From Cellulomonas sp. NTE-D12 (GTDB lineage: Bacteria; Actinomycetota; Actinomycetes; Actinomycetales; Cellulomonadaceae), in the NCBI RefSeq assembly GCF_027923705.1, contig NZ_AP026442.1:132853-196852 (forward strand): DNA of 64,000 nucleotides, given 5' to 3'. Shown here one piece after another: positions 7,835 through 34,556 of the stretch. The notes under the pieces were generated by a model. The model did no database searches and was not told the DNA's origin. It saw nothing but the letters and a program-made list of their open reading frames with translations. Numbering within the stretch: the stretch's first letter is position 1; each line of letters starts with the position of its first letter. A program made the translations under genes and the position numbers.

Positions 7835-9489
7835 CCACCGTCGCGCCCCGGACACGCGCTGCCGCGGTGGCGCTGCCGACGCGGGGGCGGCCGGCGGACA
7901 CGCTGGCGGGGCTCGGTGCGATGGTGCGCTTCGTCGTGCGCCGCAACCGCGTGCGGCTGGCGGTATGGCTCGTCGTGCTCGTCGGGATGTTCGCCTACGT
8001 CGGCGCCTACTACAAGAGCCTGTTCACCACGCAGCAGGCGCTCGACGACTTCGCCAAGGTCAGCGACACCCCCGGCATCCGGGCGCTGACCGGCCTGGCG
8101 GCGGCGCCGAACACCCTCGGCGGGGCCGTCTGGACCAAGGTCTGGATGACGTGCGCGCTGGCGCTGGCGTTCGGCGTCGTCTTCCTGGTCACCCGCAACG
8201 GGCGGGCGGACGAGGAGGTGGGCCGCACGGAGCTGCTGCGCTCGCGGGAGCTGGGGCTGCACGCGTACCCGGCGGCGTCGTGGCTGGTCTGCGCGGTGCT
8301 GTCCGTGCTGGTCGGCGCCCTGATCGCCGCCGTCTCGGCCGCCTCGGGCCTCGACCCGTACGGCACCGGCATCACCGGCTCGCTGATCGTCGGCGCCTCC
8401 GTCACCGGCGTGGGGCTGGTGGGCCTCGGGGTCGGGGCCGTGGCCGGTCAGGTCGCCTCCACGTCCCGCGGCGCCAACGCCCTGGGGTCCGCGGTGCTGG
8501 GCGTGCTGTACGTGATGCGGATGGTCGGCGACCTGGGCGACGGGCGGCTGACGTGGGCGTCGCCGGTGGGCTGGGGCCAGGAGATGCAGCCGTGGGGTGC
8601 CGACCGGTGGTGGCCGTTCGGGCTGCTCGTCGTGCTCGCCGTCGTGCTGCTGGCGCTGGCGACCGTGCTCGAGGCGCACCGCGACCACGGTGCCGGCCTG
8701 ATGCCGCAGCGTCCCGGGCCGGCCGGTGCGCCGGCGCGGTACGCGACCCCGCTGGGTCTGGGGCTGCGGCTGCAGCGCGGGCCTGTGGTCGGCTGGAGCG
8801 TCACCGTCGTGCTGTGCGGGCTGCTGTTCGGCTCGGTGGTGCACGCGATGGACAACCTGCTCAACGATGCCGGCACCCCGCTGCCCGCCATCCTGCGCGG
8901 CCGCGGCATCGACGCCCTGATGGCGGTGCTCGCCGGGATGATCGCCCTGATCGTGGCCGTGTACGCGGTGCAGTCGGCGACGACGCTGCGGGCCGACGAG
9001 GCCTCCGGCCTGGTGGAGACGCAGCTGGCCGGGGCGCTGTCGCGGTGGCGGTGGGCGCTGCAGCGGCTGCTGATCCCGGCCGTCGGCGGCGCGGTGCTGC
9101 TCGCCGCGGGCGGTGCCCTGCTCGGCGCCAGCTACGGGGCCACGGTGCACGACGGCTCGTGGACCGGCCGGATGGCCGTCGCGTCGCTCGTCTACTGGCC
9201 GGCGGTGATGGTGCTGGTCGGGGTGGCTGTGGCGCTGTTCGGCTGGCTGCCGCGGGTGGCGATCGCGCTGACGTGGGGGCTGCTGGCGGCGCTGTGGTTC
9301 GTCATGCTGATCGGCGACGCCCTGCACCTGCCCCACTGGGTGCTCGGGGTGCTGCCGTTCTCCGCGACCCCCTACATGCCGCTGGACCCGATGCGGTGGA
9401 CGCCCGTGGTGGTGATGACGGCCGTCGCCGCGCTCCTGGTGTGGGCCGGGATCGACCGGTTCGCGCGGCGGGACGTCGTCCCCGGCTGA
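7831..9489 (+). CDS. ABC-2 family transporter permease (multi-pass membrane protein)
   Basis: The GTG at 7831 overlaps the ATPase stop (GTGA), giving translational coupling. The 552 aa protein is highly hydrophobic with many predicted TM helices. The listed 1102-aa ORF 6181..9489 is a read-through artefact. Confidence 0.75.
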   Translation: MTTVAPRTRAAAVALPTRGRPADTLAGLGAMVRFVVRRNRVRLAVWLVVLVGMFAYVGAYYKSLFTTQQALDDFAKVSDTPGIRALTGLAAAPNTLGGAVWTKVWMTCALALAFGVVFLVTRNGRADEEVGRTELLRSRELGLHAYPAASWLVCAVLSVLVGALIAAVSAASGLDPYGTGITGSLIVGASVTGVGLVGLGVGAVAGQVASTSRGANALGSAVLGVLYVMRMVGDLGDGRLTWASPVGWGQEMQPWGADRWWPFGLLVVLAVVLLALATVLEAHRDHGAGLMPQRPGPAGAPARYATPLGLGLRLQRGPVVGWSVTVVLCGLLFGSVVHAMDNLLNDAGTPLPAILRGRGIDALMAVLAGMIALIVAVYAVQSATTLRADEASGLVETQLAGALSRWRWALQRLLIPAVGGAVLLAAGGALLGASYGATVHDGSWTGRMAVASLVYWPAVMVLVGVAVALFGWLPRVAIALTWGLLAALWFVMLIGDALHLPHWVLGVLPFSATPYMPLDPMRWTPVVVMTAVAALLVWAGIDRFARRDVVPG

Positions 9490-9579
9490 CCGGTCGAACG
9501 GACCCCCGCCCGGGAGGCGGTCCCGCGCTCGATCGGGATCGCCTCTCGGGCTGGACTCTGCCGCGCTCCGGGTTCATGC

Positions 9580-9605
9580 TAGTCACTGTCATTTGGCAGT
9601 GACTA
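9580..9605. promoter_or_regulatory. perfect palindrome TAGTCACTG-N8-CAGTGACTA; candidate TetR operator upstream of the MFS/TetR pair
   Basis: Seen directly 16 bp upstream of the MFS start codon. The downstream cotranscribed TetR at 11271 is the likely ligand. Confidence 0.45.
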
Positions 9606-9620
9606 TCAGCGGAGGCAGCG

Positions 9621-11210
9621 ATGAACCGGACGACGAGCGGCACGGTGGGGTCGCGCCGGTGGTGGGCGCTGGGCGGCGTCACCCTGGCGGTGCTGGCCGT
9701 GTCGATGGACGTGACGATCCTCAGCGTCGCGCTGCCGACGCTGGCCGGAGCGTTGTCGGCGACTGCCGCGGACCTGCAGTGGTTCTCCGCCGGCTACGCC
9801 CTGGTGCTGGCGGCGCTGACCCTGCCGGCCGGCTGGCTGGGTGACCGGCTCGGCCGCAAGCGGGTGCTGATGGGCTCGCTGCTGGTGTTCGCGGCAGGCT
9901 CCGCGGCCTGCGCCTACGCCGGGTCGGCGGCGTGGTTCGTCGTCGCGCGCATGCTGCTCGGCGTCGGCGGGGCCGGGGTGGTCGTGATGGCCGTCTCCGC
10001 GCTGACGGTGCTGTTCGACGACGCCGAGCGTCCCCGCGCTGTGGCGGTGTGGGGCGCCGCGAACCTCGTCGCGTTCCCCGTCGGCCCCATCCTGGGCGGC
10101 TGGCTGCTGTCCCACGTCTGGTGGGGCTGGGTGTTCCTGCTCAACGTGCCGGTCAGCCTGCTGGGCCTCGCGGCGGTCGCGGCGTGGGTCCCGGAGAGCT
10201 CCGCGGACCGGCCGCCTCGGCTCGACGGCGTGGGGCTGGTCGCCTCGAGCGCCGGGCTCGCGGCGCTGACGTGGGGGTTCATCCAGGCCGGTCAGGACGG
10301 GTGGAGCTCGGCTCGGGCGTGGGCCCTGATGGTCACCGGGCTGCTGGCGCTGGTCGGGTTCGGCGGCTGGGAGGCGCGGCTGGCACGGCGTGGGGGACAG
10401 CCGCTGGTGGACCCCGCCCTGTTCCGCTCGGCGTCGTTCAGCTGGGGCGTGACGCTGTTCGCCGTGCTGACCCTGGCGCTGATCGGCCTGATCTTCGCGC
10501 TGCCGCAGTACTTCCAGGCGGTGCTGGGCACCGACCCCCAGGGCTCGGGGCTCCGGTTGCTGCCCCTGGTCGGAGGCCTGCTGGTGGGGCTGGGGCCGTC
10601 CCGCGCCCTGGCGGTGCGGGTGGGGGTGAAGACGACGGTGGCGGCCGGCTTCGTCGTGCTGGCCGCCGGTCTCGCGATCGGTGCGACGACGACGACCGCC
10701 TCCGGCACCGGGTTCGCGGCGCTCTGGACGGCGGTCAGCGGGGTCGGCACCGGCATGGTGATGGCGACGGTCGCCGCCGCGGCCCTCGCCGAGATCCCGG
10801 CGGAGCGGGCGGGCGTCGGCTCGGCGGTGATGCAGGCCGTCAAGGGGGTCGGCGCGCCGCTCGGTGCCGCCGTGCTCGGCAGCGTGCTGGCCGCCGGCTA
10901 CCGGAACCACCTGCCTGTGGTGACCACCCCCGGTGGTGCCGGTGAGGCGATGCGCGCCAACGTGTTCGCCGGGCTGCGGGTCGCACGGCAGCTGCACGAC
11001 GCGCAGCTCGGCCGGCAGGTGCAGGCGGCGTTCGTGCACGGGGTGACCGGCACGTTGCTGGTGTCGCTCGCGGTGGCCGTGGCCGGCGCTGTGCTCGCGG
11101 TGCTGTTCCTGCCTCGTCGTGCCGCCGTCGTCCCTGCGCCTGGTGGCGACGCCGTGCAAGGCGTTGCGGCCGATCGGGTGCCCGGGGACGTGCCGGCGAG
11201 CACTCGATGA
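9621..11210 (+). CDS. MFS transporter, DHA2/EmrB-QacA-like 14-TMS drug:H+ antiporter
   Basis: GGAGG RBS. The translation is MNRTTSGTVGSRRWWALGGVTLAVLAVSMDVTILSVALPTLAGAL...GWLGDRLGRKRVLM...; it is 529 aa and hydrophobic throughout. Confidence 0.8.
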   Translation: MNRTTSGTVGSRRWWALGGVTLAVLAVSMDVTILSVALPTLAGALSATAADLQWFSAGYALVLAALTLPAGWLGDRLGRKRVLMGSLLVFAAGSAACAYAGSAAWFVVARMLLGVGGAGVVVMAVSALTVLFDDAERPRAVAVWGAANLVAFPVGPILGGWLLSHVWWGWVFLLNVPVSLLGLAAVAAWVPESSADRPPRLDGVGLVASSAGLAALTWGFIQAGQDGWSSARAWALMVTGLLALVGFGGWEARLARRGGQPLVDPALFRSASFSWGVTLFAVLTLALIGLIFALPQYFQAVLGTDPQGSGLRLLPLVGGLLVGLGPSRALAVRVGVKTTVAAGFVVLAAGLAIGATTTTASGTGFAALWTAVSGVGTGMVMATVAAAALAEIPAERAGVGSAVMQAVKGVGAPLGAAVLGSVLAAGYRNHLPVVTTPGGAGEAMRANVFAGLRVARQLHDAQLGRQVQAAFVHGVTGTLLVSLAVAVAGAVLAVLFLPRRAAVVPAPGGDAVQGVAADRVPGDVPASTR

Positions 11211-11270
11211 GGCGTTCGCGGGGTGCGGCGCGGCCGTCGCGCCCCGCGGGGCAGGCAGCACAATGGGCAC

Positions 11271-11879
11271 GTGCCCGCTGACGCCGCCCCCGCCACCGGC
11301 CTGCGGGAGCGCAAGAAGGCCCGCACCCGCACGGCCATCCAGCACCACGCCCTGCGGCTGTTCACCGAGCAGGGCTACGCGGCGACGACGGTGGAGCAGG
11401 TGGCCGAGGCCGCCGACGTGTCTCCCAGCACCGTGTTCCGCTACTTCCCCACCAAGGACGACCTGGTCCTGACGGACGAGCTGGACCCCGCGCTCATCGC
11501 CGCGATCCGCTCCCAGCCGGCCGAGCTGGCCCCGGTGTCCGCGTTCCGCGCGGCGCTGCGGCAGGTGTTCGGCGCCGTCGACGCGGGCCTGCTGGTCGAC
11601 GTCAAGACGCGCGCCACCCTGATCCTCTCGGTGCCGGAGCTGCGCGCCGCGATGCTGGACCAGCTGGCGCAGAGCATCACCTGGCTCACCGAGCTGATCG
11701 CCGAACGTGCCGGGCGCCCGGCAGACGACCCGGCGGCCCGGGCGCTGGCCGGCGCGATGGTCGGCGTCTGGATCGCCGCCGCGACCGACTGGGTGGCCCA
11801 CCCCGACGACGACCTGCTCGGCGCGCTGGACACCGCGCTCGCGTACCTGGAGAACGGCCTGACGCTCGACGTGCCGTGA
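11271..11879 (+). CDS. TetR family transcriptional regulator (downstream of MFS gene)
   Basis: RERKKARTRTAIQHHALRLFTEQGYAATTVEQVAEAADVSPSTVFRYFPTKDDLVL. The in-frame GTG is at 11271. Confidence 0.8.
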   Translation: MPADAAPATGLRERKKARTRTAIQHHALRLFTEQGYAATTVEQVAEAADVSPSTVFRYFPTKDDLVLTDELDPALIAAIRSQPAELAPVSAFRAALRQVFGAVDAGLLVDVKTRATLILSVPELRAAMLDQLAQSITWLTELIAERAGRPADDPAARALAGAMVGVWIAAATDWVAHPDDDLLGALDTALAYLENGLTLDVP

Positions 11880-11997
11880 GCCGGCGGGGGCTCGCGCCCG
11901 CGTGTCGGCGGCGACGGGCCATGGGCTAGCATGGGCCGCGCGTTGGGGGGACCGGGTCGGTCCCGCCGGGTGCACGACCAGCGAAAGTGCTGGTCAC

Positions 11998-12068
11998 GCG
12001 GGTGTAGTTCAATGGTAGAACTTCAGCTTCCCAAGCTGAGAGCGCGGGTTCGATTCCCGTCACCCGCT
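11998..12068 (+). tRNA. tRNA-Gly (anticodon CCC)
   Basis: GCGGGTG-TA-GTTC-AATGGTA-GAAC-T-TCAGC-TTCCCAA-GCTGA-GAGC-GCGGG-TTCGATT-CCCGT-CACCCGC-T folds as a cloverleaf with the anticodon loop TTCCCAA. CCA is not encoded. Confidence 0.85.
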
Positions 12069-12070
12069 CC
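12026..12070. repeat. attL core: 45-bp direct repeat (3' half of tRNA-Gly), identical to 28685-28729
   Basis: GCTTCCCAAGCTGAGAGCGCGGGTTCGATTCCCGTCACCCGCTCC is found identically at both positions by eye. Confidence 0.8.
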
Positions 12071-12138
12071 GCGTTTTCGCAGGTCAGGGCCCCACAGTGG
12101 CTCTGTCGGACCTCCTTGAGACCCTCTGCTGGTCGGCT

Positions 12139-12158
12139 CGTGCCTATACGTGCCTTAA
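12139..12158. promoter_or_regulatory. tandem 10-mers CGTGCCTATA-CGTGCCTTAA; candidate integrase arm-type sites (attL side)
   Basis: Seen directly. The same decamer family recurs as an inverted pair next to attR (28555-28582). Confidence 0.35.
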
Positions 12159-12172
12159 AGAGAGGTCCGGCC

Positions 12173-13537
12173 ATGCCTACCCGACACCATCGACGTGTAT
12201 CCGGCACCGTGCGGCGGCTCCCCAGCGGGAGATGGCAGGCCCGGTACACCGGACCGGACGGCGCGCAGCGCGCGGTCGGGGTCTATCCGACGAAGGCGGA
12301 GGCCGACCAGGCGCTCGCCTTCGAGATCTCCGAGATTGCCCGCGGCACCTGGCGGGACCCGCGGCGCGGGGACCAGCCGCTCGCGGACTTCCTGCGGACC
12401 TGGATCGCGACCCGCGCCGATCTGGCCCCGAGCACCCGTGCGCTGTATGAGCGGATGTTCACGCAGTGGATCGATGCGGACGTGCCGCTGGGCGACCTGT
12501 CCCGCAGCGTCTCGCGGCAGACGGTCCGGCTCGGCGAGCGCACCCTGGCGTCGATCGGTCCGGCCGACATCCGGGAGTGGGACGCCGCCGTTCTGGCCGA
12601 GGCGCGACGGCGGGCGGGGGCTCGGTGGACGAAGGCGAGCGTCACGCCGGAGCGGGTCAACAAGGCGATCCGGACGTGGGCTGCCGAGCAGGGCCGGCCC
12701 GTCGCGCCCACCGGCCGGATGTCGGCGTCGCTGCGTGAGGCGTGGCTGGCCGCGACCGGGGGAGAGGTGCCGCTGGACCCGCGTGCCGAGCGGCACAACC
12801 TCGGCCACACCGAGGCGGCGCAGGCCTACCGGTTCCTGCACACCGGGCTGGCCCAGGCGGTGTCCGACGGGCTCATCCTGGCGAACCCGTGCGCGGTCAA
12901 GGGCGCGAGCCAACGCGACTCCCGGCACCGGACCGAGCGGCGGGTGCTCGCCGCCGACGAGCTGTGGGCGCTGGCCGACGCGATGCCCGAGCGGTACCGC
13001 GCCGCGGTGGTCGTGGCGTTCCTGTCCGGGCTGCGCGCCGGGGAGCTCTTCGCGCTGCAGCGCCGGCACGTCGACCTGACCAAGGGGACGCTGCGGGTCG
13101 AGCAGGCGCTCGCGCTGCCGGGGAGCGGATCGGTCTTCTCGACGACGAAGTCGCGCGCCGGCGTGCGGACGGTGGTGCTGCCGTCGGTCGCGGTCGAGGT
13201 GCTGGCGGAGCACATGGCGCTGTTCACGCCGGCGGGACGAGACTCGCTGGTGTTCGGGACCTCGTCCGGGCGGCCGGTCAGCAACGGACATCGCTCGATG
13301 ATGTTCGGACGGGCTCGGAAGACCATCGGTCGCGACGACCTGACATGGCACGACCTCCGGCACTCGGCACTGACGCTCGTCGCCTCAACGGGGGCGACGC
13401 TGCCCGAGCTGATGGAGCGGGCCGGGCACTCGACGCCGCGCGCGGCGCTGCACTACCAGCACGCCGCGGACGACTCGCAGCGGCGGATCGCCGAGCGGCT
13501 CGATGTCCTAATGGCCGTTAAGCAGCCACGTGGCTAG
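12173..13537 (+). CDS. int: tyrosine-type site-specific integrase
   Basis: An AAAGAGAGG RBS precedes the ATG at 12173. The C-terminal catalytic region reads ...RAGELFALQRRHVDL...WHDLRHSALTLVASTGATLPELMERAGHSTPRAALHYQHA (R...HxxR...Y). It lies immediately 3' of tRNA-Gly. Confidence 0.85.
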   Translation: MPTRHHRRVSGTVRRLPSGRWQARYTGPDGAQRAVGVYPTKAEADQALAFEISEIARGTWRDPRRGDQPLADFLRTWIATRADLAPSTRALYERMFTQWIDADVPLGDLSRSVSRQTVRLGERTLASIGPADIREWDAAVLAEARRRAGARWTKASVTPERVNKAIRTWAAEQGRPVAPTGRMSASLREAWLAATGGEVPLDPRAERHNLGHTEAAQAYRFLHTGLAQAVSDGLILANPCAVKGASQRDSRHRTERRVLAADELWALADAMPERYRAAVVVAFLSGLRAGELFALQRRHVDLTKGTLRVEQALALPGSGSVFSTTKSRAGVRTVVLPSVAVEVLAEHMALFTPAGRDSLVFGTSSGRPVSNGHRSMMFGRARKTIGRDDLTWHDLRHSALTLVASTGATLPELMERAGHSTPRAALHYQHAADDSQRRIAERLDVLMAVKQPRG

Positions 13538-13667: not shown

Positions 13668-14648
13668 TCAGGCCCGAAGTGGCACCTCTGATCGGCTCAC
13701 CGCAGCACTTGAGCCTAGTGAAGCCAGAAGCTTCCTGACGCCAGCCTCGCGCACGTCCCCGTAATTGCCGGGGCCAAGCCGAATCGACCGGATCGCGTCG
13801 ATCGCAAACGGTAGCTCGATGTATGGAACGATAGCCATTGATGTGGACCGGTATTTCACCAAGGACTCTGGAGCACCGGGACCGCCTGCGGGGCCCTCGG
13901 GTTCCAGGGCTGCCAGGAGCCGCCATTCCTCTTCCTGCCTGAACGCAGGGTCTTTCACGGTCGCGAGCAGTGCTGAGACTTCAAGCGCCTTGTAGTACGA
14001 CTTCACTCCCGGATGGTTCAAATTGAAGTCGCCAACAGCCCTGACGGCCTCAGAAGCGATATCAGCCGCGGCCTCGGAGCCATAGCGGACCTCGATGAGG
14101 CGACTCGCAGGTGTGTACATCGCGGGACTCCCGGACACCGCCGCCAACTTCGCCGCATCCAGTTCGATCGCGTACCCGTGCTCGGCCCCATAGCCACGCC
14201 ATTGGCTGAGCAGATCACCGGACTCGCAGAAGCATGCGGCATAGACACCGAAGTCTGTCGAGGCAAGCGTCTCGAAGAAGTACCGCTTGTACTCCTCGAA
14301 AGTCTCGACGGCGTAATGGCCTAGGTCATGTGCGAAGTGATCGGGCCTCAAGACCGGGTTATCCATCTGACTGATGGCGTTGAGGACGAGGTCTCGAGCG
14401 TAGAGCGCCTCGCGCGCATCATTCAGAAAGCGAACGTCCGTCGCACGAATCGTCTGCGTAGTGAGGATCCCGAGCAATCCCGAGGCTGTGGTGTAGTGAT
14501 ACAGCGACCTATTGGCAGACACGCCTCGCTCCGTTCCATACGTTGTCCTCGAGCATGGCGGGCCATCCCAGGCATCACAGGGAGGCGCGCTGACCTGCGG
14601 CGACGGGGCCGCGAGGATCGCTCTGTCGCTGCGGGTCGCGGTCGCCAC
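13668..14648 (-). CDS. DUF2971-like hypothetical protein (family enriched in defence islands)
   Basis: ...RSLYHYTTASGLLGILTTQTIRATDVRFLNDAREALY... matches the DUF2971 N-terminal signature (YxYxs...L...LwfS....NDpxE). The start is uncertain. Confidence 0.45.
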   Translation of the reverse strand: MATATRSDRAILAAPSPQVSAPPCDAWDGPPCSRTTYGTERGVSANRSLYHYTTASGLLGILTTQTIRATDVRFLNDAREALYARDLVLNAISQMDNPVLRPDHFAHDLGHYAVETFEEYKRYFFETLASTDFGVYAACFCESGDLLSQWRGYGAEHGYAIELDAAKLAAVSGSPAMYTPASRLIEVRYGSEAAADIASEAVRAVGDFNLNHPGVKSYYKALEVSALLATVKDPAFRQEEEWRLLAALEPEGPAGGPGAPESLVKYRSTSMAIVPYIELPFAIDAIRSIRLGPGNYGDVREAGVRKLLASLGSSAAVSRSEVPLRA

Positions 14649-14888
14649 GGGTACACCTCATTGGCCTCGGGTGGCGTCCCAAGTGTCTGCGGCGCCGAAG
14701 TAGTCAGAAGCGGGTCCTGCCCACGGGTGGGTCGGCGCCGGCCGAGGCTCGTGGTCGGCGGTTCTATGGACTTGACGCCGACCGCGCGCAACAGGCAACC
14801 GGCGCGAGGGCTGCTCCCATGCCCGAAGGCCGCGAATCATCCGCTTGGCGGGACCGCGGTCTCGCGAGTCCAACTACCGTCAGTCTCC

Positions 14889-15809
14889 GTGTGGGACGGT
14901 GAACTGGATGCGCGTCTGAGGCGCGAACTCATGGCCTGGCTGACGGTCCGGACCCACGACGGGGCTCAGCCGATCGGCACCAGTGAGCTGGCCGACTTCA
15001 TGTTCGACGGCGAGCAGTTCCGCGTGTTGGATCGCCAGCGGGGCATCACGAAACCGGCGGTTCTTCCGTCGGCTCTTAGCCTAAGAACGACGTATCGCTC
15101 ACCCGGTCAGCCGCTGCCATACGACGATCACATCGGGGACGATGGACTGGTCCGCTACAAGTGGCGCGGCGACGACGGTGAACACTGGGAGAACCGGGCG
15201 CTACGAGCCGCCATGCGCGCAGAAAGCCCGCTCGTGTGGTTCTTTGGCGTGGGACCCGCGTTGTGGCAGCCGGTGTATCCAGTATTCCTCGTAGGCGAGG
15301 AACCAGCAGAGCAGCAGTTCATTGTCGACCCTGATGTCGCGCGGGGTTTGATAACGCCAGGCTCGCGAGTGGAAGAACATCTGCGTCGATATGTCGTGGC
15401 GCAGACGCGCCGTCGTCTTCACCAGCCCGTCTTCCGTGCGACAGTTCTGCGAGCCTACGAGGGTCGCTGCGCCGTCTGTTCTCTCGCCCACCCGGAACTG
15501 CTTGATGCGGCGCACATCGTTCCCGACTCCAGCCCGCGAGGCATTGCATCCGTTCGCAACGGCATGGCCCTATGCAAGCTTCATCACTCAGCGTTCGATG
15601 CAAACATCCTCGGCATCGACCCGGACCTCAAAATCGCAATCAGACCGGATCTCTTGGCGGAGATCGACGGACCAACACTTCGCTACGGGCTCCAGGAGCG
15701 GCACGGCGAGCACCTGCGCGTACTGCCGCACGTGCGTGCGGAGCGTCCCGACCCCGAGCTGCTGGCCGAGCGGTTCGCAGTGTTTCTCGCGGAGCCGCAG
15801 GCAAGCTGA
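14889..15809 (+). CDS. SRA(YDG)-HNH endonuclease, Type IV modification-dependent restriction-like (ScoMcrA/TagI-like architecture)
   Basis: The N-terminal half GITKPAVLPSALSLRTTYRSPGQPLPYDDHIGDDGLVRYKWRGDDGEHWENRALRAAMRAESPLVWFFG aligns to the SRA/YDG-domain motifs (SL..GGY.DD.D.GD...YTG.GG ... NRAL.....PVRV.R). The C-terminus reads CAVCSLAHPELLDAAHIVPDS...NGMALCKLHHSAFDANILGI, an HNH (HNH_2) nuclease. An alternative start is the ATG at 14766. Confidence 0.55.
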   Translation: MWDGELDARLRRELMAWLTVRTHDGAQPIGTSELADFMFDGEQFRVLDRQRGITKPAVLPSALSLRTTYRSPGQPLPYDDHIGDDGLVRYKWRGDDGEHWENRALRAAMRAESPLVWFFGVGPALWQPVYPVFLVGEEPAEQQFIVDPDVARGLITPGSRVEEHLRRYVVAQTRRRLHQPVFRATVLRAYEGRCAVCSLAHPELLDAAHIVPDSSPRGIASVRNGMALCKLHHSAFDANILGIDPDLKIAIRPDLLAEIDGPTLRYGLQERHGEHLRVLPHVRAERPDPELLAERFAVFLAEPQAS

Positions 15810-15860
15810 CCGGACCAGTGGGGTTGGTCCGGCGCACTGGTTGCCGGGCAGAATGCGAGC

Positions 15861-18371
15861 ATGCAGGGGGCTGCGGAGTTGTTGATCGGCGGGTTCGCCG
15901 TCGTCGCAATGATCGCGATTGTGCGGATTCGCCATCGTGCCGCCGCGAGGCGACTGGAGGAGTTGCGGGTCGCGGCGGCTCCTTCGCTGGACGAGCTCCG
16001 CGGATGGCGAACCTCGGTTGAGACGCGCATCGACGATCTCGTCCACGAGGGTCGCTGGATCTCCCGCGACACATGGACCGACTGGACGAGGTCGGGGCCT
16101 CTCCCGGCGGCGGCGCTCCTCAAACTCGCTGGAGTGCCAGGCGCCGGCGAGGAGGCACGTCAGTCCCTCGCATTCCTCCGCGAAGAACTGGCCTCGCTCG
16201 TAGCGTCGGCGAACCAGCAGGTGCTCCGAAATGAACTCAGGGCCAGACGCGCCCTCTTCGACAGCATCGAGTCGCAGCCCCTGACCGACGAGCAGGCGGC
16301 CGCGGTGGTGACCTTCGACAACCGGGTGCAGGTGATCGCTGCCGCGGGCTCCGGCAAGACGTCGGTGATGGTGGCTCGGGCCGCATACTCGATCCTTCGC
16401 GGCTTCGTGCCTGCCGAGCGGATTCTGCTGCTGGCGTTCAACAAGGACGCCGCGACGGAACTGCAGGAACGGGTGACCACCCGGCTCGCTGCTGCTGGCA
16501 TCGCATCCGACGGATTGCGAGCCGCAACCTTCCACTCCTTCGGCCTCTCGGTGATCGGACAGGCGACTGGGCGGAAGCCGCGCCTGGCCGCCTGGCTGGA
16601 CGGTGGCGGTGACGTACAGATGGTTGGCCGGATCGTCGACGAGCTTCGTGACCGCTCCCCGTACTTCCGGTTCCGCTGGGACCTGTACCGCCTGCTGTTC
16701 GCTCGGATGGCGGACGAGCCGGGCGACGGTGAGCCGGACGCCTACAACTCAGCCAGCAAGGAGACGGGTTACCGCACCTACAACGGTGAGGTCGTCAAGA
16801 GCCAGGGCGAGCGGATGATCGCCGACTTCCTCTTCCTCAACGGCGTGCGCTACGAGTACGAGAAGCCCTACGTCTACGACGTCGCGGATGCGACGCACTC
16901 GCAGTACCGGCCGGACTTCTTCTACCCCGACATCGACGTCTGGCACGAGCACTGGGCGCTCGACCGTCACGGGAAGCCCCCGGAGGAGTTCGTCGGCTAT
17001 GCCGAAGGCATCGAGTGGAAGAAGTCGGTGCACCGCAGCCACGGCACGAGCCTGATCGAGACCACGTGGGCGACGATCCTTGACCAAACCGGCTTCCAGC
17101 CTCTGGCTGATGAGCTGAAGGCCCGCGGCTTGCCGCTGGACTGGAATCCCGACCGTCCTACCCGGGGCGCGGAACCTCTGAAGCACGAGGACCTGGCGCT
17201 GCTGATGCGCACCTTCCTCACTCACGTGAAGTCCAACTCGCTCACCAAGGAGCAACTCGAGGAGCGGCTCCAGGCGAACACGAAGGTCTCGCACTACCGG
17301 GCACAGCTCTTCCTCGGAGTGTTCTGGGAGATCTACGCGCAGTGGCAGGCTCGCCTGGCTGCTGACGACTCGATCGACTTCGAGGACATGCTCGTCCAGG
17401 CTGCCGATCACCTCGAGGCCCGCCGTGTCGACATGGGTTACGACCTCGTTCTCGTCGACGAGTTCCAAGACGCCAGCCGCGCGCGAGCTCGCCTGACCAG
17501 GGCCCTGGTGGACAAGCCGCACCGCTACCTGCTCGCCGTCGGCGACGACTGGCAGTCCATCAACCGCTTCGCCGGCTCCGACCTCTCCCTCATGACCGAC
17601 TTCGCGAACTGGTTCGGCGAGTCGAAGACGCTGCGGTTGCAGACGACCTTCCGCTCCCCTCAGTCGATCTGCGATACAGCCAGTGGTTTTGTCTCGAAGA
17701 ACACGCGGCAGTTCGCCAAGCAGGTCAGGTCGGTCCAGCCCGATTACGGGCCGCCGGTGTCGCTCGTTCGCGTTCCGCGTGCGGAAGCGGTCAGGGGAGC
17801 GGTCGCCGCAACTCTCGACGAGATCTCCCGGGGAGTCCGGGCCGGGAAGGTCCCACCGGGACTGTCGGGAGCGGTGAGAGTCGACATCCTCGGCCGCTAC
17901 CGGTTCGACCGCGACGTCATGCCGTTGCAGTCGTATCCCGGTCTGGCCGTCAGCTTCCGGACGGTCCACGCGTCGAAGGGCCTCGAGGCCGACTACGTGA
18001 TCCTGCCGAACGTGTCAGCGGGGACGTACGGCTTCCCGAGCGAAGTGGTGGACGACCCCGTTCTCTCGCTCGCCATGACCGACGCCGACCCGTACCCCCA
18101 TGCCGAGGAGCGTCGCCTGTTCTACGTCGCGCTCACCCGTGCTCGACGGGCGGTGACGATCATCGGCATCCAAGGCAAGGAGTCGAGCTTCATCGCCGAG
18201 CTGATCGCCGATCACCGCATCGAGCTCTCGCACTTGAGCGCGGTCGAGATGGCGGAAGCGTGCCCGGCATGCGGCAACGGCATCCTCGTCGTCCGACGGC
18301 ATCGGGCGACCGGCCGTCAGTTCCTCGGGTGCAACGCCTTCCCACGGTGTACCTACACGCGCAACCGGTGA
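15861..18371 (+). CDS. membrane-anchored UvrD/Rep-family SF1 helicase with inserted PD-(D/E)xK (DUF559/NERD-like) nuclease-like domain and C-terminal topoisomerase-type Zn ribbon
   Basis: There is an N-terminal hydrophobic helix LLIGGFAVVAMIAIVRI. Walker A is AAAGSGKTSVMVARA. An insert GERMIADFLFLNGVRYEYEKPY...YRPDFFYPDIDVWHEHWA lies between helicase subdomains. The DExx box is LVLVDEFQDAS and motif VI is LFYVALTRARRAVTII. The C-terminal ribbon reads CPACGNGILVVRRHRATGRQFLGCNAFPRCTYT. Confidence 0.7.
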   Translation: MQGAAELLIGGFAVVAMIAIVRIRHRAAARRLEELRVAAAPSLDELRGWRTSVETRIDDLVHEGRWISRDTWTDWTRSGPLPAAALLKLAGVPGAGEEARQSLAFLREELASLVASANQQVLRNELRARRALFDSIESQPLTDEQAAAVVTFDNRVQVIAAAGSGKTSVMVARAAYSILRGFVPAERILLLAFNKDAATELQERVTTRLAAAGIASDGLRAATFHSFGLSVIGQATGRKPRLAAWLDGGGDVQMVGRIVDELRDRSPYFRFRWDLYRLLFARMADEPGDGEPDAYNSASKETGYRTYNGEVVKSQGERMIADFLFLNGVRYEYEKPYVYDVADATHSQYRPDFFYPDIDVWHEHWALDRHGKPPEEFVGYAEGIEWKKSVHRSHGTSLIETTWATILDQTGFQPLADELKARGLPLDWNPDRPTRGAEPLKHEDLALLMRTFLTHVKSNSLTKEQLEERLQANTKVSHYRAQLFLGVFWEIYAQWQARLAADDSIDFEDMLVQAADHLEARRVDMGYDLVLVDEFQDASRARARLTRALVDKPHRYLLAVGDDWQSINRFAGSDLSLMTDFANWFGESKTLRLQTTFRSPQSICDTASGFVSKNTRQFAKQVRSVQPDYGPPVSLVRVPRAEAVRGAVAATLDEISRGVRAGKVPPGLSGAVRVDILGRYRFDRDVMPLQSYPGLAVSFRTVHASKGLEADYVILPNVSAGTYGFPSEVVDDPVLSLAMTDADPYPHAEERRLFYVALTRARRAVTIIGIQGKESSFIAELIADHRIELSHLSAVEMAEACPACGNGILVVRRHRATGRQFLGCNAFPRCTYTRNR

Positions 18372-18377
18372 CCCGTA

Positions 18378-18598
18378 CTCCTTCCCCTCCTCCTTCTCCT
18401 CCTCCTTCCTCCGTCGCCCCCTTCTCCTCCCTCACCCCCTTCTCCTCCCTCACCCCCTTCTCCTCCCTCATCCCCTTCTTCTCCCTCATCCCCTTCTTCT
18501 CCCTCATCCCCTTCTTCTCCCTCATCCCCTTCTTCTCCCTCACCCCTTCTTCTCCCTCACCCCTTCTTCTCCCTCACCCCTTCCCTTACCTCCCATCA
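18378..18598. repeat. polypyrimidine (C/T-rich on + strand) minisatellite, about 10 tandem copies of an 18-bp unit (CCCCTTCTTCTCCCTCAT and variants)
   Basis: Seen directly. The minus frame would read (MREKKG)n, but no credible gene context supports that. It lies between the helicase and DnaB-like genes. Confidence 0.8.
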
Positions 18599-18792: not shown

Positions 18793-19518
18793 ATGCATTT
18801 CGACGGCCCGATGATCGCGGGGGGTCACCCCTATGAGCTGGACGCCCTGCTCAACGCGGAGGCTCCGACGATGCTCCCGACTGGCATCGTGGCGCTCGAC
18901 GAATTCACGGGCGGGATCGAGCGGGGCTCTCTGTGGGCGATCTCAGGCCTTGCCGGTATCGGCGTCAGCGGCCTCGCTTTGGCCCTCGCCGCCAACGCCG
19001 CGTCCGACGGCGACGTCATCGTCTGCAACGGCCACATTCCGTCACGTGTGCTCGCGCGTCGCCTCGCCGCGCTCGCCGGCAAAGAGCGACGACTTCGGGT
19101 CGCATCCTGGTTCAGCCTGCTACCGGAACCGCCCGACGATCTGGGTGACGGCACTCTCGAACAGGCGGACCTGGTCGTCGTGGACACCTGGGACGAGACG
19201 TGGCATGCAGCAACGTGGCCGGCGACTCGTACCGAGCTCACCCGCCGGCTTCGCTGGCTCCGACATCTCGCGCGCGACAACGGCACAGCCATCGTTCTGA
19301 CATCTCGCATGCCACAGGCCCGGAGCGACGATGTCGTGGGCTGGATGGCCGACGCGTTCGACGACGCGGCGGACGTCTGCATCGCGATCACCGCGATGGA
19401 GGACGCCCGCTTCGGAGCCCCGATCGCGGCGCGCGCGATCGTACGAAGCCGCAGCGTTGGACGGAGAGCATTTCGACTTGCAGGCGGGAGCGTGCCCCGG
19501 CTGACCCCCGAGCCGTGA
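18793..19518 (+). CDS. DnaB-C/RecA-fold protein with degenerate Walker A (pseudo-ATPase)
   Basis: LDEFTGGIERGSLWAISGLAGIGVSGLALALAANAASDGDVIVCNGHIPSRVLARRLAAL follows the DnaB C-terminal-domain pattern LDxxTGGhxxGxLhhhAuRPGMGKTxhALNhAxNxA....hhFSLEM. However GIGVSG replaces GMGKT (no P-loop lysine), and NGHI replaces SLEM. Confidence 0.5.
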   Translation: MHFDGPMIAGGHPYELDALLNAEAPTMLPTGIVALDEFTGGIERGSLWAISGLAGIGVSGLALALAANAASDGDVIVCNGHIPSRVLARRLAALAGKERRLRVASWFSLLPEPPDDLGDGTLEQADLVVVDTWDETWHAATWPATRTELTRRLRWLRHLARDNGTAIVLTSRMPQARSDDVVGWMADAFDDAADVCIAITAMEDARFGAPIAARAIVRSRSVGRRAFRLAGGSVPRLTPEP

Positions 19519-19535: not shown

Positions 19536-20222
19536 TCAGGACCGCGCCTTGAGGGCCTTCCGAGGCTTGACCTGCAGGTCGAGGGACCGGCGAACGTCGC
19601 GCGCGTTGTCGGACTCCGAGAAACGCATCCATGTCGCCACGTCGAGCAGCCGGAGCGTGGTCGGCGCCGGGCCGTCCATCGCGGGCGCCATGCCATCGAT
19701 CGCGGACCGAATCTGCGCGTCTTCGAGTGCGGTCTGAAGCGCGGACCAGGAGCCGGTGCTCCCCAACCCGAGTGCACCGCTGACGACCGAGTCGATGATC
19801 GGCAGCAGGTGGGGGCGCTTCCGGGCCAGCAGCTTGCTGGCTCGGGTACGCCCGATGCCGGGAATTGCCCGCACCCGCAGCCACAGCAGCCCTGCGGCTG
19901 AGTGCTCGCCGAGGACCGCGTCGTAGTTCGCCTTCCACAGCGGCAGGTCTGTCGGCACGCCCGACAGGAGATCGTCGGCGACGCCTCCCGTCACGAGTGC
20001 GCGGACAGCCTCCGGCTTGAAGCGGACGTCAAGCAGGGAGGCTGCCAACAGGTCGTCAGTCGTGAAGTGATCCGGCGGGTTATCCCCGAGGTCGTCGAAC
20101 AGGGATCCAGCAAACGGCTTGTCGCGGTAGTAGTGGTTGACCAGTTCCGCGCCGCGTTGCTCGACGACGTCGAGAATCGCGCTGCGGATGACGTCCGTCG
20201 ACGCTGATGGCTGACCAGGCAT
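19536..20222 (-). CDS. hypothetical protein with helix-hairpin-helix-like motif (IPGIGRTRASKLLARKRPHLLPIID)
   Basis: ATG at 20222 (MPGQPSASTDVIRSAILDVVEQRGAELVNHYYRDKPFAGSLFDD...), 228 aa. It is divergent from the relaxase gene across the iteron region. Confidence 0.5.
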   Translation of the reverse strand: MPGQPSASTDVIRSAILDVVEQRGAELVNHYYRDKPFAGSLFDDLGDNPPDHFTTDDLLAASLLDVRFKPEAVRALVTGGVADDLLSGVPTDLPLWKANYDAVLGEHSAAGLLWLRVRAIPGIGRTRASKLLARKRPHLLPIIDSVVSGALGLGSTGSWSALQTALEDAQIRSAIDGMAPAMDGPAPTTLRLLDVATWMRFSESDNARDVRRSLDLQVKPRKALKARS

Positions 20223-20301
20223 GGGATCTCCAGATCTGCTCGGGCTTGGGCCGACCGTAGCGCTCCCGACCTGCGGCGATGCGGGAGCAACGCGGTGTGG
20301 A

Positions 20302-20612
20302 GGACTCGCCTCGTCGCATGTTGTAGCCGCGCTGCACACGTCCTCACGTGGGGACCTCACGCGCCTGTCACCGGCTGACCGATAGACGACCCGATAGACG
20401 GCCATGTCACCGAGATGTCACCGGCCGGATGTCACCGGTTTGTCTATCGGTCTGTCTATCGCTGCTGAGGATCGTCGCGCGCGTGCCACGACCTCCGCTG
20501 CCTTCGTCGTCCGCGACGCCCTCCGGTCATCCGCTCGCCGTCGCGTGTTGCTCGTCGTCCCGCACTCCCGCTTCTAGGGGGGCCACACCGTGGCGCCCCT
20601 CGAGAGGGGGTG
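20302..20612. repeat. about 310-bp relaxase leader region with iterons (2x CGATAGAC direct, 2x GTCTATCG inverted, 3-4x ATGTCACCG); candidate oriT/regulatory region; copy A
   Basis: It is about 90% identical to 34557-34858 (copy B). Internal short repeats were seen directly. Confidence 0.6.
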
Positions 20613-20619
20613 CGTCGCG

Positions 20620-23532
20620 ATGCTGGCGATCGCCAAGCTGACGGTCGGCGACGGGTACGAGTACCTCTCGCGCCAGGTTGCGACCGGTGACATCGAGATG
20701 TCCCGCAGCCAGGCGCTGGCCGCCTACTACGCCGCGTCGGGCACGGAACAGGGCGTGTGGCTCGGCCGCGGCCTGGAGGGTCTGGCCGACGTGCGTCGCG
20801 GCGACCCGGTCACCCGAGAGGCGATGACCCGCCTGTTCCGCGACGGTCGCGACCCGTCGACCGGGGACGCGCTCGGCATCCCGTTCGACGCGCTGCACGT
20901 GGGCCGGGGCAAGCCCGTCGCCGGCTTCGACCTCGTCTTCACCGTGCCCAAGTCCGCCTCCGTGCTGTGGGCGCTCGGAGACGCGGCCACCCGCGAGGCT
21001 GTCGTCGGAGCGCACCGCAGCGCGCGGGCCCAGGCGCTGACGTTCCTCGAGGACAAGGCGATCCGGACCCGCGTCGGGGCCGGCGGGTCGCGCCAGGTGC
21101 GGACCCTCGGGGTGGTGGCGGCGGGGTTCGAGCACGTCGACTCGCGGCTGAACGACCCGAACCTGCACACGCACCTGGTGATCGCCAACAAGGTGCAGAC
21201 CCCGGATGGGACGTGGCGGGCGCTGGACGGGCGGACGCTGCTGCAGGCCACGGTCTCCGCCAGCGAGCTGTACGACGGGTTCCTTGCCGACGAGCTGAGC
21301 CGGCGGCTGGGGGTGAGGTGGGAGCTGCGCGACCGCGGTCCGCGGCGAAACCCGACGTTGGCGCTGCAGGGCCTGTCCGACGAGGTGCTCGACCTGTTCT
21401 CCCGCCGCGGCGCGCAGGTGGACGCCGCCCAGCAGGCGTGGGAGACGACGTTCGTCCTGAAGCATGGCCGCACGCCGGACCCGGTCGAGGTCACCAAGGC
21501 CCGCGGGCTGCTGACCCGCTCGACCCGCCCGGCGAAGGTGCTGCGGCCGCTCGGAGAGCTGTTCGAGGAGTGGGCCAACCGCGCTCGGGCGCTGACCGGG
21601 CTGGAGCCGCGGGACCTGGCCGCGCGGGCACTGGTCGGGGACTACGGGCGGAGCCTGCACGTGCACGACGTGGCCGGGCCGATGCGCGCCGCTCTGGTGG
21701 ACCAGGTGCTTGCGGACGTGCAGGGTCGTGCCGCCGTCTTCAGCACCTGGACGCTGACCGCGGCCGCGGCGCGCGCCACGCGGGTGCTGCCGATGGCCTC
21801 GCCCGACGAGCGGATCGCGCTGGTCGGAACCCTGGTCACCGCGGCGGCGGGGTGCTGCGTGCGGCTGGACGACGGGCAGGTCCGCCGGATAGGGGAGGAG
21901 AAGTTCACCACCCCGGCGATCCTCGCGGCCGAGCAGGAGCTGTTGAACCGGGCTATGGCGCCGACGGGCCTCGGAGTTCCGCATCCGGTCCAGATCGCGC
22001 GGCAGCTGGCCCGCTACCCCGGCTTGAGCGAGGACCAGCGCCGGGCGGCGGCCGCGGTGCTCGGGTCCGGGCAGGTGATCGACACCGTGGTCGGCCCGGC
22101 CGGGTCGGGCAAGACGACCACGCTGCGGGCGGTGATCGGCGCCTGGCAGTCGGTCTACGGGTCGTCGGTGATCGCCCTGGCGCCGTCGGCGACGGCAGCG
22201 CACGTGCTCGGCGAGGCGCTCGGGATCCGCGCCGAGACCACGGCCAAGTGGCTGTTCGAGCAGCCCCGGAACGACGAACGAGCGGCCGAGGCGCGCGAGC
22301 TGGCGGCCCGGTTGCCGCTGACGCCGACTGAGGCGAGCGACCAGCTCGAGGCGCGGATCGTCGACCTGATGTCGCAGGTGCAGGCATGGCGGCTGTCCCG
22401 CGGGCAGCTCGTCGTGCTCGACGAGGCGTCCCTGGCCGACACGCCCACGCTGGCCACACTCGCCGGCCAGGCGCAGGACGCCGGCGCCAAGATCGTGCTG
22501 GTCGGCGACCCGGAGCAACGGCCCGCCGTCGGCCCCGGCGGCGGGTTCGGCATGCTCGTGCACCGGCACGCCACCGCGCAGCTGACCGCGCTGCACCGGT
22601 TCACCCAGCCGTGGGAGGCCGCTGCCGTCCTGCAGATCCGCGCCGGCGACGCCCGCGCCATCGCGGTCTACCGGTCGCAGGGCCGGATCACCGTGGGGGC
22701 GCCCGACGAGGTCCTGGACACCGCCGTGCTCGCCGCCGGGCAGGACGCGGTCGCGGGGAAGGTGGTGCTGCTGCAGGCCGCCGACACCCGCACCGTCCAC
22801 GAGCTCAACGCCCGCGCCCACGCCGCGGCGGTCCTGGACGGCCGCGCCCGCCGCGACGGCGGTGTCCCACTGGCCGACCAGACCGTGGCCACCGTGGGGG
22901 ACCGGGTGGTGACCCGGCACAACGACCGCCGGCTGCGCACCACCGACGGGTTCGTCCGCAACGGCGCGCTGTGGGACGTGACCGCCACCGCGCCCGACGG
23001 GTCGCTGACCGTCCGACCCGCCGACCATCGGGACCAGCCAGGTGCCGACGTCCGGCTGCCGGCCGGCTACGTCCGCGAGCACGTCGAGCTCGGCTACGCC
23101 ACCACCACCGCCCGCTCCCAGGGGCGCACCGTCGACACCACCCACACCGTCGTCAGCGCCGCGATGGCCCGCGAAGACCTCTACGTGGCGGTCACCCGCG
23201 GCCGCGACCACAACCAGCTCTACGTCCCAACCGGTCCGTTCGACGCCGACTGCCCACCCGGCCCGTCCCGACGTCAGGAGGCCGACGAGACGCTGCGCAC
23301 CGTCCTGGCCACCAACCGCATCCCGGCCACCGCGACCGAGACGTGGGCCGCGAACCACCCGGGGGAACCGGTCCCGGTGCCATCGCGGGTGCCGACATGG
23401 CGACCCGAGCCCGTCGTCGTCGGCGGTGCCGAGCGTCGCCCGGTCCAGCCGCGGCGCGCGGCACCGCCCGCCGCCCTGCCACCGCCGCCGGTCCGGCCTG
23501 CCCACGCCCTCGACCGCTCACTCGGCCGCTGA
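20620..23532 (+). CDS. traA: MobF/TrwC-family conjugative relaxase-helicase (TraA-like)
   Basis: A GAGAGGGGG RBS precedes the ATG at 20620. The N-terminal relaxase domain reads MLAIAKLTVGDGYEYLSRQVATGD...AAYYAASGTEQGVWLG...HTHLVIANK. The C-terminal RecD-like helicase carries Walker A VVGPAGSGKTTTLRAV. The protein is about 970 aa. Confidence 0.85.
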   Translation: MLAIAKLTVGDGYEYLSRQVATGDIEMSRSQALAAYYAASGTEQGVWLGRGLEGLADVRRGDPVTREAMTRLFRDGRDPSTGDALGIPFDALHVGRGKPVAGFDLVFTVPKSASVLWALGDAATREAVVGAHRSARAQALTFLEDKAIRTRVGAGGSRQVRTLGVVAAGFEHVDSRLNDPNLHTHLVIANKVQTPDGTWRALDGRTLLQATVSASELYDGFLADELSRRLGVRWELRDRGPRRNPTLALQGLSDEVLDLFSRRGAQVDAAQQAWETTFVLKHGRTPDPVEVTKARGLLTRSTRPAKVLRPLGELFEEWANRARALTGLEPRDLAARALVGDYGRSLHVHDVAGPMRAALVDQVLADVQGRAAVFSTWTLTAAAARATRVLPMASPDERIALVGTLVTAAAGCCVRLDDGQVRRIGEEKFTTPAILAAEQELLNRAMAPTGLGVPHPVQIARQLARYPGLSEDQRRAAAAVLGSGQVIDTVVGPAGSGKTTTLRAVIGAWQSVYGSSVIALAPSATAAHVLGEALGIRAETTAKWLFEQPRNDERAAEARELAARLPLTPTEASDQLEARIVDLMSQVQAWRLSRGQLVVLDEASLADTPTLATLAGQAQDAGAKIVLVGDPEQRPAVGPGGGFGMLVHRHATAQLTALHRFTQPWEAAAVLQIRAGDARAIAVYRSQGRITVGAPDEVLDTAVLAAGQDAVAGKVVLLQAADTRTVHELNARAHAAAVLDGRARRDGGVPLADQTVATVGDRVVTRHNDRRLRTTDGFVRNGALWDVTATAPDGSLTVRPADHRDQPGADVRLPAGYVREHVELGYATTTARSQGRTVDTTHTVVSAAMAREDLYVAVTRGRDHNQLYVPTGPFDADCPPGPSRRQEADETLRTVLATNRIPATATETWAANHPGEPVPVPSRVPTWRPEPVVVGGAERRPVQPRRAAPPAALPPPPVRPAHALDRSLGR

Positions 23533-28684: not shown

Positions 28685-28729
28685 GCTTCCCAAGCTGAGA
28701 GCGCGGGTTCGATTCCCGTCACCCGCTCC
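28685..28729. repeat. attR core: 45-bp direct repeat of tRNA-Gly 3' half
   Basis: It is identical to 12026-12070. Confidence 0.8.
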
Positions 28730-28989
28730 AGCATCTCCCCAGGTCAGAGCCAACCGGGTATCGAACTGACGGGTGGTACCTCAGCCACGAGGGATCGGGC
28801 GACGACGTCCACACGGTGATCATGTCGAAACGACCCTCGAGGATCGTGCCGTCTTGGCTCGACACGCCCAGACCGAGCGCCCTCACGACATCCTGCCCCG
28901 GGCATGTACTCGTAGCTGGTCCGGCACATCACCGCAGATCACTCCCAGCCCTGCGTTGCTCAGCGGCTCAAAGCGGTCGCAGCGCACCG

Positions 28990-29676: not shown

Positions 29677-29754
29677 GAGAGCGATTGTTCCGGATCGGAG
29701 CGCTTCACGTCTTGATCACTCTCGGCTCGACGTTCAGGCGCCAGAATCGGTTGC

Positions 29755-34489: not shown

Positions 34490-34556
34490 GCGGGTCACGG
34501 TGGCGACCGGGAGCGCACCGCTGAGCTGCGCGCCGGGGACATCGGCACAGCGATCG

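Follow-up and report, generated by a model that had tools for sequence, protein, structure and literature searches.

Do three adjacent genes on a genomic island of Cellulomonas sp. NTE-D12 act as one defence system? The genes occupy positions 13668-18371 of a 64,000-nucleotide stretch of this genome (contig NZ_AP026442.1, positions 132,853 to 196,852 of the forward strand), hereafter the window. They encode a DUF2971 protein (gene 1), an SRA-HNH protein (gene 2), and a helicase-nuclease with a putative membrane anchor (gene 3), and an earlier note, made from the sequence alone, had proposed them as a three-gene defence module. In our reading, to which we give a probability of about 0.6, the cargo end of a 16.7-kb tRNA-Gly element carries three functionally independent genes side by side, with gene 2 standing alone, gene 3 separately mobile, and gene 1 unlinked to both. 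Thus, the apparent three-gene system resolves into three separable units. Taken as a whole, the locus is a defence islet of an ordinary kind within an integrative element, and it includes one helicase-nuclease family that is uncharacterised. The genes and the regions between them are as follows.

13668-14522, minus strand: gene 1, DUF2971 protein (Pfam DUF2971), about 284 amino acids from GTG 14522; the open reading frame extends to 14648
14523-14888: divergent intergenic region between genes 1 and 2, 366 bp, from the sequence
14889-15809, plus strand: gene 2, SRA-HNH Type IV-like endonuclease, 306 amino acids
15810-15860, plus strand: spacer between genes 2 and 3, 51 bp, from the sequence
15861-18371, plus strand: gene 3, membrane-anchored helicase IV-like superfamily 1A (SF1A) helicase with a nuclease-like insert and a C-terminal zinc ribbon, 836 amino acids

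Linkage of the three genes

The three long open reading frames at 13668-18371 are real, each with hundreds to thousands of homologues, and in this respect the earlier note was right. Genes 2 and 3 are also co-oriented as it described, both on the plus strand and 51 bp apart. Gene 1, which it had placed convergent on genes 2 and 3, is in fact divergent from gene 2, because it lies to the left of that gene and is read from the minus strand. The 5' ends of the two genes face each other across approximately 366 bp, and gene 1 is convergent with the integrase only.

To compare gene contexts, we collected 54 loci for gene 2, of which 17 had at least 2.6 kb of downstream and 33 at least 1 kb of upstream sequence, and 55 loci from species-representative genomes for gene 3. 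A gene 1 homologue (DUF2971) was found at none of the 33 gene 2 loci with enough upstream sequence and at none of the 55 gene 3 loci. A gene 3 homologue was present at only one of the 17 gene 2 loci with enough downstream DNA, and a close gene 2 homologue at none of the 55 gene 3 loci. Similarly, HNH and helicase genes were absent from the gene 1 homologue context that was readable. The surroundings of the gene 2 homologues of 61-79% identity are unrelated and include neither a helicase nor a DUF2971 gene, and members of the family sit alone in varied settings without a cognate methyltransferase. The module therefore fails the co-occurrence test that was proposed along with it, and no other genome was found in which the three genes occur together.

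The single gene 2 locus with a gene 3 homologue (L068) has a flank that is 94.6% identical to window 11000-12070 and represents the same island in a close relative. At this locus (7819-11490), gene 2 (85% amino acid identity) and gene 3 (83%) come about 110 bp after the tRNA-Gly. The shared block is 81% identical at the nucleotide level, its homology to the window starts at 14874 (blastn), and both the integrase and gene 1 are missing. Therefore, the pairing of genes 2 and 3 has descended within a single island lineage and counts as one evolutionary event, and it can exist without gene 1 and without the integrase. That all three genes form one defence system is highly improbable on these data. 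Its support lies in their adjacency on one island and in the divergent 366-bp promoter region that genes 1 and 2 share, while no gene 1 homologue lies near any of the 54 gene 2 loci or the 55 gene 3 loci, the gene 1 homologue context holds neither HNH nor helicase genes, and L068 retains the other two genes but lacks gene 1.

Two further loci show how the cargo at this site varies. At the equivalent tRNA-Gly of L063 (2304-7970), a gene 3 homologue (81% amino acid identity) is preceded by a gene for a 1020-residue PLD-helicase-DUF3427 (SauUSI-like) protein, and the cargo comprises the SauUSI-like gene, the helicase gene, and an AAA_14/DUF4143 gene. In L066 (3760-9985), a gene 2 homologue at the tRNA-Gly is followed by a NERD gene, with another HNH_2 gene ahead; the cargo here includes AAA_14/DUF4143, two different HNH_2 genes, and NERD. 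The differing cargo of L063, L066, and L068 therefore marks the tRNA-Gly site as a defence hotspot with cassette exchange. Independent genes placed side by side are usual in defence islands.

Gene 1 itself matches Pfam DUF2971 with an E value of 2.3e-7 and 32.5 bits (cut-off 22), and the domain spans most of the protein of about 300 residues, which bears out its earlier description as DUF2971-like. Its homologues are 275-295 residues long and cover 85-87% of the open reading frame, so the start is probably GTG 14522, giving 284 residues. Gene 1 had no match in the PADLOC or NCBIfam searches.

The SRA-HNH protein

The second gene comprises two domains.

14889-15368, plus strand: SRA fold, about residues 1-160
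15456-15638, plus strand: HNH (ββα-Me) domain, about residues 190-250

Based on family members of 302-306 residues that begin with "MWD...", gene 2 starts at GTG 14889 and not at the start of the 493-residue open reading frame. In Pfam it matches HNH_2 alone (E 1e-12), a domain present in all 105 of the family members compared. This C-terminal HNH domain carries the conserved His, Asn, and His residues as well as Cys/His zinc ligands. In contrast, Pfam SAD_SRA (PF02182) was missing from gene 2 and from all 105 diverse relatives, even at an E value of 0.1. An AlphaFold2 model built on these 105 relatives (pLDDT 94.1, pTM 0.88) has an N-terminal β-barrel of the SRA (PUA-superfamily) fold. The SRA call thus rests on fold, because no sequence hidden Markov model detects the domain, and at the level of the modelled fold the assignment of gene 2 as SRA-HNH is correct. 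Of the two domains named in the earlier note, the HNH is confirmed by sequence and the SRA by structure only; the SAD_SRA search that was suggested as a check would have missed it.

Other searches point in the same direction. The gene 2 family profile matched only one sequence in the PDB, TagI, and phmmer with gene 2 itself returned nothing relevant from that database. The NCBIfam phosphorothioate-restriction model and the PADLOC HNH models match only the HNH half of gene 2, and its N-terminal domain had no match in PADLOC or NCBIfam. We considered and rejected a ScoMcrA/SprMcrA-type phosphorothioate enzyme with a sulfur-binding domain: the HNH part alone was matched (positions 156-260 of 284), the score was 61 bits against a cut-off of 180, and a sulfur-binding domain is not present.

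Across the gene 2 family, Tyr90 is invariant and Tyr78 and Asp80 are near-invariant. In TagI, the walls of the pocket are formed by Tyr55 and Tyr67, with Asp58 nearby (PMC6212794). The 12-residue spacing of Tyr78 and Tyr90 equals that of Tyr55 and Tyr67, and Asp80 stands near the place of Asp58, which makes the three residues candidates for a flipped-base pocket. TagI and ScoA3IV are dimers independent of nucleoside triphosphates (NTPs) that flip 5-methylcytosine (5mC) or 5-hydroxymethylcytosine (5hmC) into the SRA pocket and cut nearby (PMC6212794, PMC6765204). By analogy, gene 2 would encode a modification-dependent (Type IV) restriction endonuclease that works alone, without NTPs and without a partner. 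The SRA barrel would flip out a cytosine modified at position 5 and receive it in a pocket with Tyr78 and Tyr90 as walls and the carboxylate of Asp80, and the HNH domains would dimerise and cut nearby.

There is good support for gene 2 acting in defence on its own, as a Type IV SRA-HNH enzyme, and the gene is a sequence-divergent member of this known class. The fallback of the earlier note, that the SRA-HNH protein alone may suffice, is in fact the best reading. The family comprises 371 clusters at 50% identity (E<1e-30) and is labelled merely "HNH endonuclease". On the strength of the structural model, this large actinobacterial family is probably a source of 5mC/5hmC-dependent enzymes that is widespread but has gone unrecognised; domain-based screens with Pfam or InterPro SRA models would likely miss them.

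The helicase-nuclease and its neighbourhoods

Three features are added to the helicase core of gene 3.

15867-15923, plus strand: N-terminal hydrophobic helix, residues 3-21, putative membrane anchor (Kyte-Doolittle mean of the 19-mer, 2.25)
16713-17180, plus strand: PD-(D/E)xK-like (T7 endonuclease I-like) domain, about residues 285-440
18255-18365, plus strand: topoisomerase-type Cys4 zinc ribbon, residues 799-835 (Pfam Zn_ribbon_Top1, E 2e-9)

In gene 3, helicase motifs I, II, III, and VI (GSGKT, DEFQD, GDDWQS, and VALTRAR) are intact and do not vary across the family; together with the fold, they support an ATPase-competent SF1A motor. The insert occupies the 1B position, with helicase motif Ia before it and motif II after it. 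It matches PADLOC models that contain PD-(D/E)xK nucleases (PDC-S69, E 9e-10; HEAT_CxxC_PD-DEXK, E 6e-9) and, weakly, T7 endonuclease I (Pfam Phage_endo_I, 0.0099; profile against the PDB, E 1.1). Within the insert, Glu317, Asp352, and Glu363 are conserved. The first two align directly with Glu20 and Asp55 of T7 endonuclease I, and Glu363, from its spacing to Asp352, presumably corresponds to Glu65, taking these to be the catalytic residues of the T7 enzyme. The position of the canonical lysine is occupied by Trp365; the invariant Lys387 may substitute for it. In the ribbon, Cys804, Cys824, and Cys830 are invariant and Cys801 is near-invariant. The domain description in the earlier note (836 residues, N-terminal transmembrane helix, SF1 core, PD-(D/E)xK-like insert, Cys4 ribbon) was essentially accurate, with Trp365 in place of the canonical lysine as the point that departs from it.

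The N-terminal segment had no PADLOC or NCBIfam match. A hydrophobic 19-mer (Kyte-Doolittle mean of at least 1.6) precedes Trp49 in 29 of 61 gene 3 homologues, nearly always within the first ten residues. These homologues correspond approximately to the closer relatives of 809-882 residues, and the others have a longer soluble N-terminus. The sequence of the segment is not conserved; conservation of the hydrophobic property without conservation of sequence therefore suggests that the anchor is real. The NCBI annotation of the identical protein (745 residues) starts 91 codons downstream and leaves out the hydrophobic N-terminus (window 15861-16133), so that the conserved Trp49, Trp66, and Pro80 fall upstream of the annotated start.

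From these features, gene 3 would be an ATP-driven 3'-5' SF1A motor held at the membrane, with an insert acting as a structure-specific or end-processing nuclease and a zinc ribbon that would bind single-stranded DNA. Such a protein would most likely act on entering or broken foreign DNA at the membrane, as a separately mobile single-gene helicase-nuclease resident in mobile elements and defence islands.

The gene 3 family is widespread in actinomycetes and also occurs on proteobacterial plasmids. In the neighbour censuses, open reading frames were picked stop-to-stop and weighted by G+C content at third codon positions, and the counts are indicative only. The immediate upstream neighbours in 41 genomes are heterogeneous and include MFS transporters, NERD proteins, Schlafen-type helicases, and glutamine synthetase, among others. 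Homologues on 115 plasmids also have varied neighbours, and others lie among toxin-antitoxin, insertion sequence, and integrase genes. The distant homologues (42-57% identity) stand beside housekeeping genes (MFS transporters, glutamine synthetase, PPDK, histidine phosphatase). The phage search returned short, unannotated faecal contigs and no bona fide phage genome with gene 3. In L114, a methyltransferase, an AAA_5 ATPase, and a PDDEXK_13 protein are encoded near the gene 3 homologue.

Some neighbourhoods recur. Three Nocardioides-type mobile elements (L115, 1242-8508; L120, 1254-8508; L121, 1231-8508) carry a conserved co-oriented array of an N6_N4 methyltransferase (about 705 residues), a ResIII/YagJ protein (864 residues), and a gene 3 homologue (835 residues), with junctions that overlap or measure 40-45 bp. 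In Ornithinimicrobium and Serinicoccus (L059, 9500-12275; L045, 8232-11904), the gene 3 homologues appear split over two or three frames, perhaps as pseudogenes or through errors of assembly; upstream of them are an SLFN-group-3 helicase gene and an HNH_2 gene. The HNH genes of these two loci were rejected as gene 2 orthologues, since only the HNH half is shared (hhalign columns 164-300). Additionally, a DUF6308 gene lies 1-2.5 kb from the gene 3 homologue in the window and in eight Arthrobacter-group loci (L034, 8027-8728, and seven other Arthrobacter/Pseudarthrobacter loci). These eight loci carry NERD, DUF6994, DUF6308, helicase, and large serine recombinase genes. DUF6308 may be a recurrent neighbour of gene 3 or a chance one within defence cargo; for DUF6308 and for helicase IV-type defence proteins, the searchable literature yielded nothing useful.

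Several of these observations weigh against the independence of the three genes. In two lineages, closer gene 3 relatives (66-83% identity) follow a restriction-type gene on the same strand after a gap of 40-85 bp. The upstream genes belong to three unrelated enzyme classes, namely SRA-HNH (the window and L068), SauUSI-like (L063), and Mod with ResIII/YagJ (L115, L120, and L121), and GmrSD adjoins the gene 3 homologue in L008. Mere juxtaposition would predict a less regular restriction-gene neighbourhood than this one, which is compatible with an accessory role. The 51-bp spacer between genes 2 and 3 shows no evident terminator and no T-tract; it holds a GC hairpin that lacks statistical significance (z -1.38) and is not shared by L068, and the two genes may be co-transcribed. 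Furthermore, the context sample amounts to tens of loci with lineage redundancy. Whole gene 3 is matched only by generic UvrD-helicase models (GajB, RTasHel) among the 25 of 52 PADLOC matches listed, and its nuclease motif has no canonical lysine.

The regular neighbourhood and the spacer without a clear terminator favour a generic restriction accessory. Tethered to the membrane, gene 3 would load on the ends or nicks left by any of the upstream enzymes (SRA-HNH, SauUSI-like, or Type III-like) and degrade the cut DNA processively, so that genes 2 and 3 would form a two-gene unit from which gene 1 is excluded. Moreover, at one tRNA-Gly hotspot the upstream restriction gene has been exchanged and the helicase kept (L063, L068), and in L059 and L045 an SLFN-type helicase and an HNH_2 gene lie upstream. 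However, we regard this explanation as rather unlikely. The supporting cases come from about 2-3 independent lineages, many gene 3 homologues (42-57% identity) stand beside housekeeping genes, and unrelated systems are normally packed tightly in defence islands. In addition, 16 of the 17 gene 2 loci with enough downstream DNA have no gene 3 helicase, and SRA-HNH enzymes act alone in vitro and in vivo (PMC6212794, PMC6765204). The earlier suggestion that gene 3 may be a second effector or processive degrader recruited after the SRA-HNH cut survives in a looser form: gene 3 tends to follow several kinds of restriction gene, but its pairing with gene 2 is confined to one island lineage.

A role of gene 3 in DNA processing for the element or the host, such as replication or transfer, helicase IV/HelD-like repair, or RNA polymerase recycling, appears quite unlikely. 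TrwC/TraI-type relaxases are encoded near gene 3 in the window, L115, and L121, a Prim-Pol gene is beside it in L121, homologues are frequent on plasmids, and some stand among housekeeping genes. However, the relaxase in the window has its own helicase domain, gene 3 persists at two loci with no detected integrase homologue (L063 and L068), and its neighbours are repeatedly restriction, NERD, or toxin-antitoxin genes. The score against the helicase IV model (341 bits) is also below the 543-bit equivalog cut-off, and to our knowledge neither the anchor, nor the nuclease insert, nor the zinc ribbon occurs in HelD/helicase IV, which likewise speaks against this role.

Collectively, the contexts of gene 3 fit a resident of defence islands that may have a generic restriction accessory role, the independent lineages behind the latter numbering only 2-3. 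A bolder reading, which we hold less likely than not, is that the family is an undescribed defence component, either a single-gene system that acts on DNA entering at the membrane or a plug-in degrader that boosts the upstream restriction enzyme. The second form would account for the retention of gene 3 next to upstream restriction genes that change between SRA-HNH, SauUSI-like, and Mod-Res types. For the locus as a whole, we favour three independent genes, one of which belongs to an uncharacterised helicase-nuclease family found repeatedly at the 3' end of restriction gene arrays.

The tRNA-Gly element and its relation to known systems

The element that carries the three genes has the following further features.

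11998-12070, plus strand: tRNA-Gly(CCC), the integration target (ARAGORN)
12026-12070, plus strand: left attachment site (attL), the 3' 45 nt of the tRNA-Gly, direct repeat
12116-13537, plus strand: tyrosine integrase (Pfam Phage_integrase, E 4.8e-17)
18390-18580, plus strand: C/T-rich tandem repeat with an 18-nt unit (TRF score 268, 10.7 copies, 93% matches)
18793-19518: RecA/DnaB_C-like ATPase, 3' of gene 3, inside the island
19536-20405, minus strand: DUF6308 gene, inside the island
20590-23532: TrwC/AAA_30 relaxase with its own helicase domain, inside the island
between the attachment repeats: AAA_14/DUF4143 ATPase
28685-28729, plus strand: right attachment site (attR), a perfect 45-bp copy of the tRNA-Gly 3' end, direct repeat, closing the 16.7-kb element

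The 16.7-kb region between the tRNA-Gly repeats is an integrative element. Its 45-bp attachment sequence occurs twice in the window and in none of 100 shuffled sequences (pattern search). The G+C content is 0.64-0.69 within the island and about 0.75 outside it, the host DNA being that of a high-G+C actinomycete. The element has the hallmarks of an integrative mobilisable element, namely an integrase beside a tRNA, copies of the tRNA 3' end on either side, and a relaxase gene, and it is probably mobilisable. The tRNA, the integrase, and the perfect 45-bp repeat thus define the tRNA-Gly island on which the earlier note had placed the genes, and the integrase at 12116-13537 precedes them, which makes them the first cargo block as it had stated.

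The integrase contains an internal Lsr2 DNA-binding domain at residues 182-213 (Pfam Lsr2_DNA-bd PF23359, E 1.5e-7); we know of no other case of such a domain in a tyrosine integrase. The 18-nt repeat, with the consensus CTCCCTCACCCCCTTCTT, lies directly 3' of the gene 3 stop codon and ahead of the RecA/DnaB_C-like gene. It is G-rich on the opposite strand, and the homology to L068 stops inside it, at window position 18457. The repeat could be a protein-binding array of the element, such as iterons. Beyond attR, a second island stands in tandem (28730-37000), with a DUF4238 gene at 29755-30663. A segment of approximately 300 bp in this second island (34564-34851) is 90-95% identical to 20312-20610, upstream of the relaxase of the first island, and is itself placed upstream of an open reading frame at 34670-36346. 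The tandem island and the shared repeats suggest that related elements have accreted at one tRNA.

Among known systems, gene 1 is closest in domain content to Aristaios, a single-gene lactococcal abortive-infection system in which DUF2971 is the only recognised domain (PMC11381338). The two are similar in size (284 and 316 residues), with DUF2971 as the sole recognised domain of gene 1 as well, and gene 1 may act like this abortive-infection protein (PMC11381338). The likeness is one of domain and size, not of sequence comparison, and PADLOC gave no match for gene 1. SauUSI, a Type IV enzyme of the PLD-helicase-DUF3427 type, is not in the window. A SauUSI-like gene holds the place of gene 2 at the tRNA-Gly of L063, which reflects cassette exchange at the hotspot and not homology to gene 2.

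Gene 3 resembles GajB of Gabija in its UvrD-like motor and its defence-island setting, with PADLOC GajB models matching at E values down to 3e-39. Gabija itself was rejected, with no GajA (OLD/TOPRIM) gene nearby and with SRA-HNH, RecA/DnaB_C-like ATPase, and DUF6308 genes as the neighbours. A nuclease and an SF1 helicase in one polypeptide recall Nhi; no Nhi model is among the 25 of 52 PADLOC matches listed. Unlike single-protein nuclease-helicase defences such as Nhi, gene 3 has its nuclease inserted inside the helicase rather than at the N-terminus. With Escherichia coli DNA helicase IV (HelD) and the SF1A helicases UvrD, Rep, and PcrA, gene 3 shares the helicase core and its motifs, to which it adds the N-terminal anchor, the PD-(D/E)xK-like insert at 1B, and the topoisomerase I-type zinc ribbon. 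Identity with the helicase IV equivalog (NF008276) was rejected because gene 3 scored 341.5 bits where 543 are required, with its best stretch limited to profile positions 348-676. Judged by these sequence profiles, the gene 3 family is neither the helicase IV equivalog nor Gabija, and the PADLOC matches listed name no system beyond generic helicase models.

The closest counterparts of gene 2 are TagI and ScoA3IV (Sco5333). Gene 2 is too diverged from them to be recognised by phmmer against the PDB or by Pfam SAD_SRA, and forms a large family of its own. Its carboxylate (Asp80) is at +2 from the first tyrosine, whereas that of TagI (Asp58) is at +3. Nevertheless, gene 2 resembles these enzymes in two tyrosines 12 residues apart, putative pocket walls in gene 2, with a carboxylate nearby, and all are encoded in high-G+C actinomycetes by stand-alone genes without a cognate methyltransferase.

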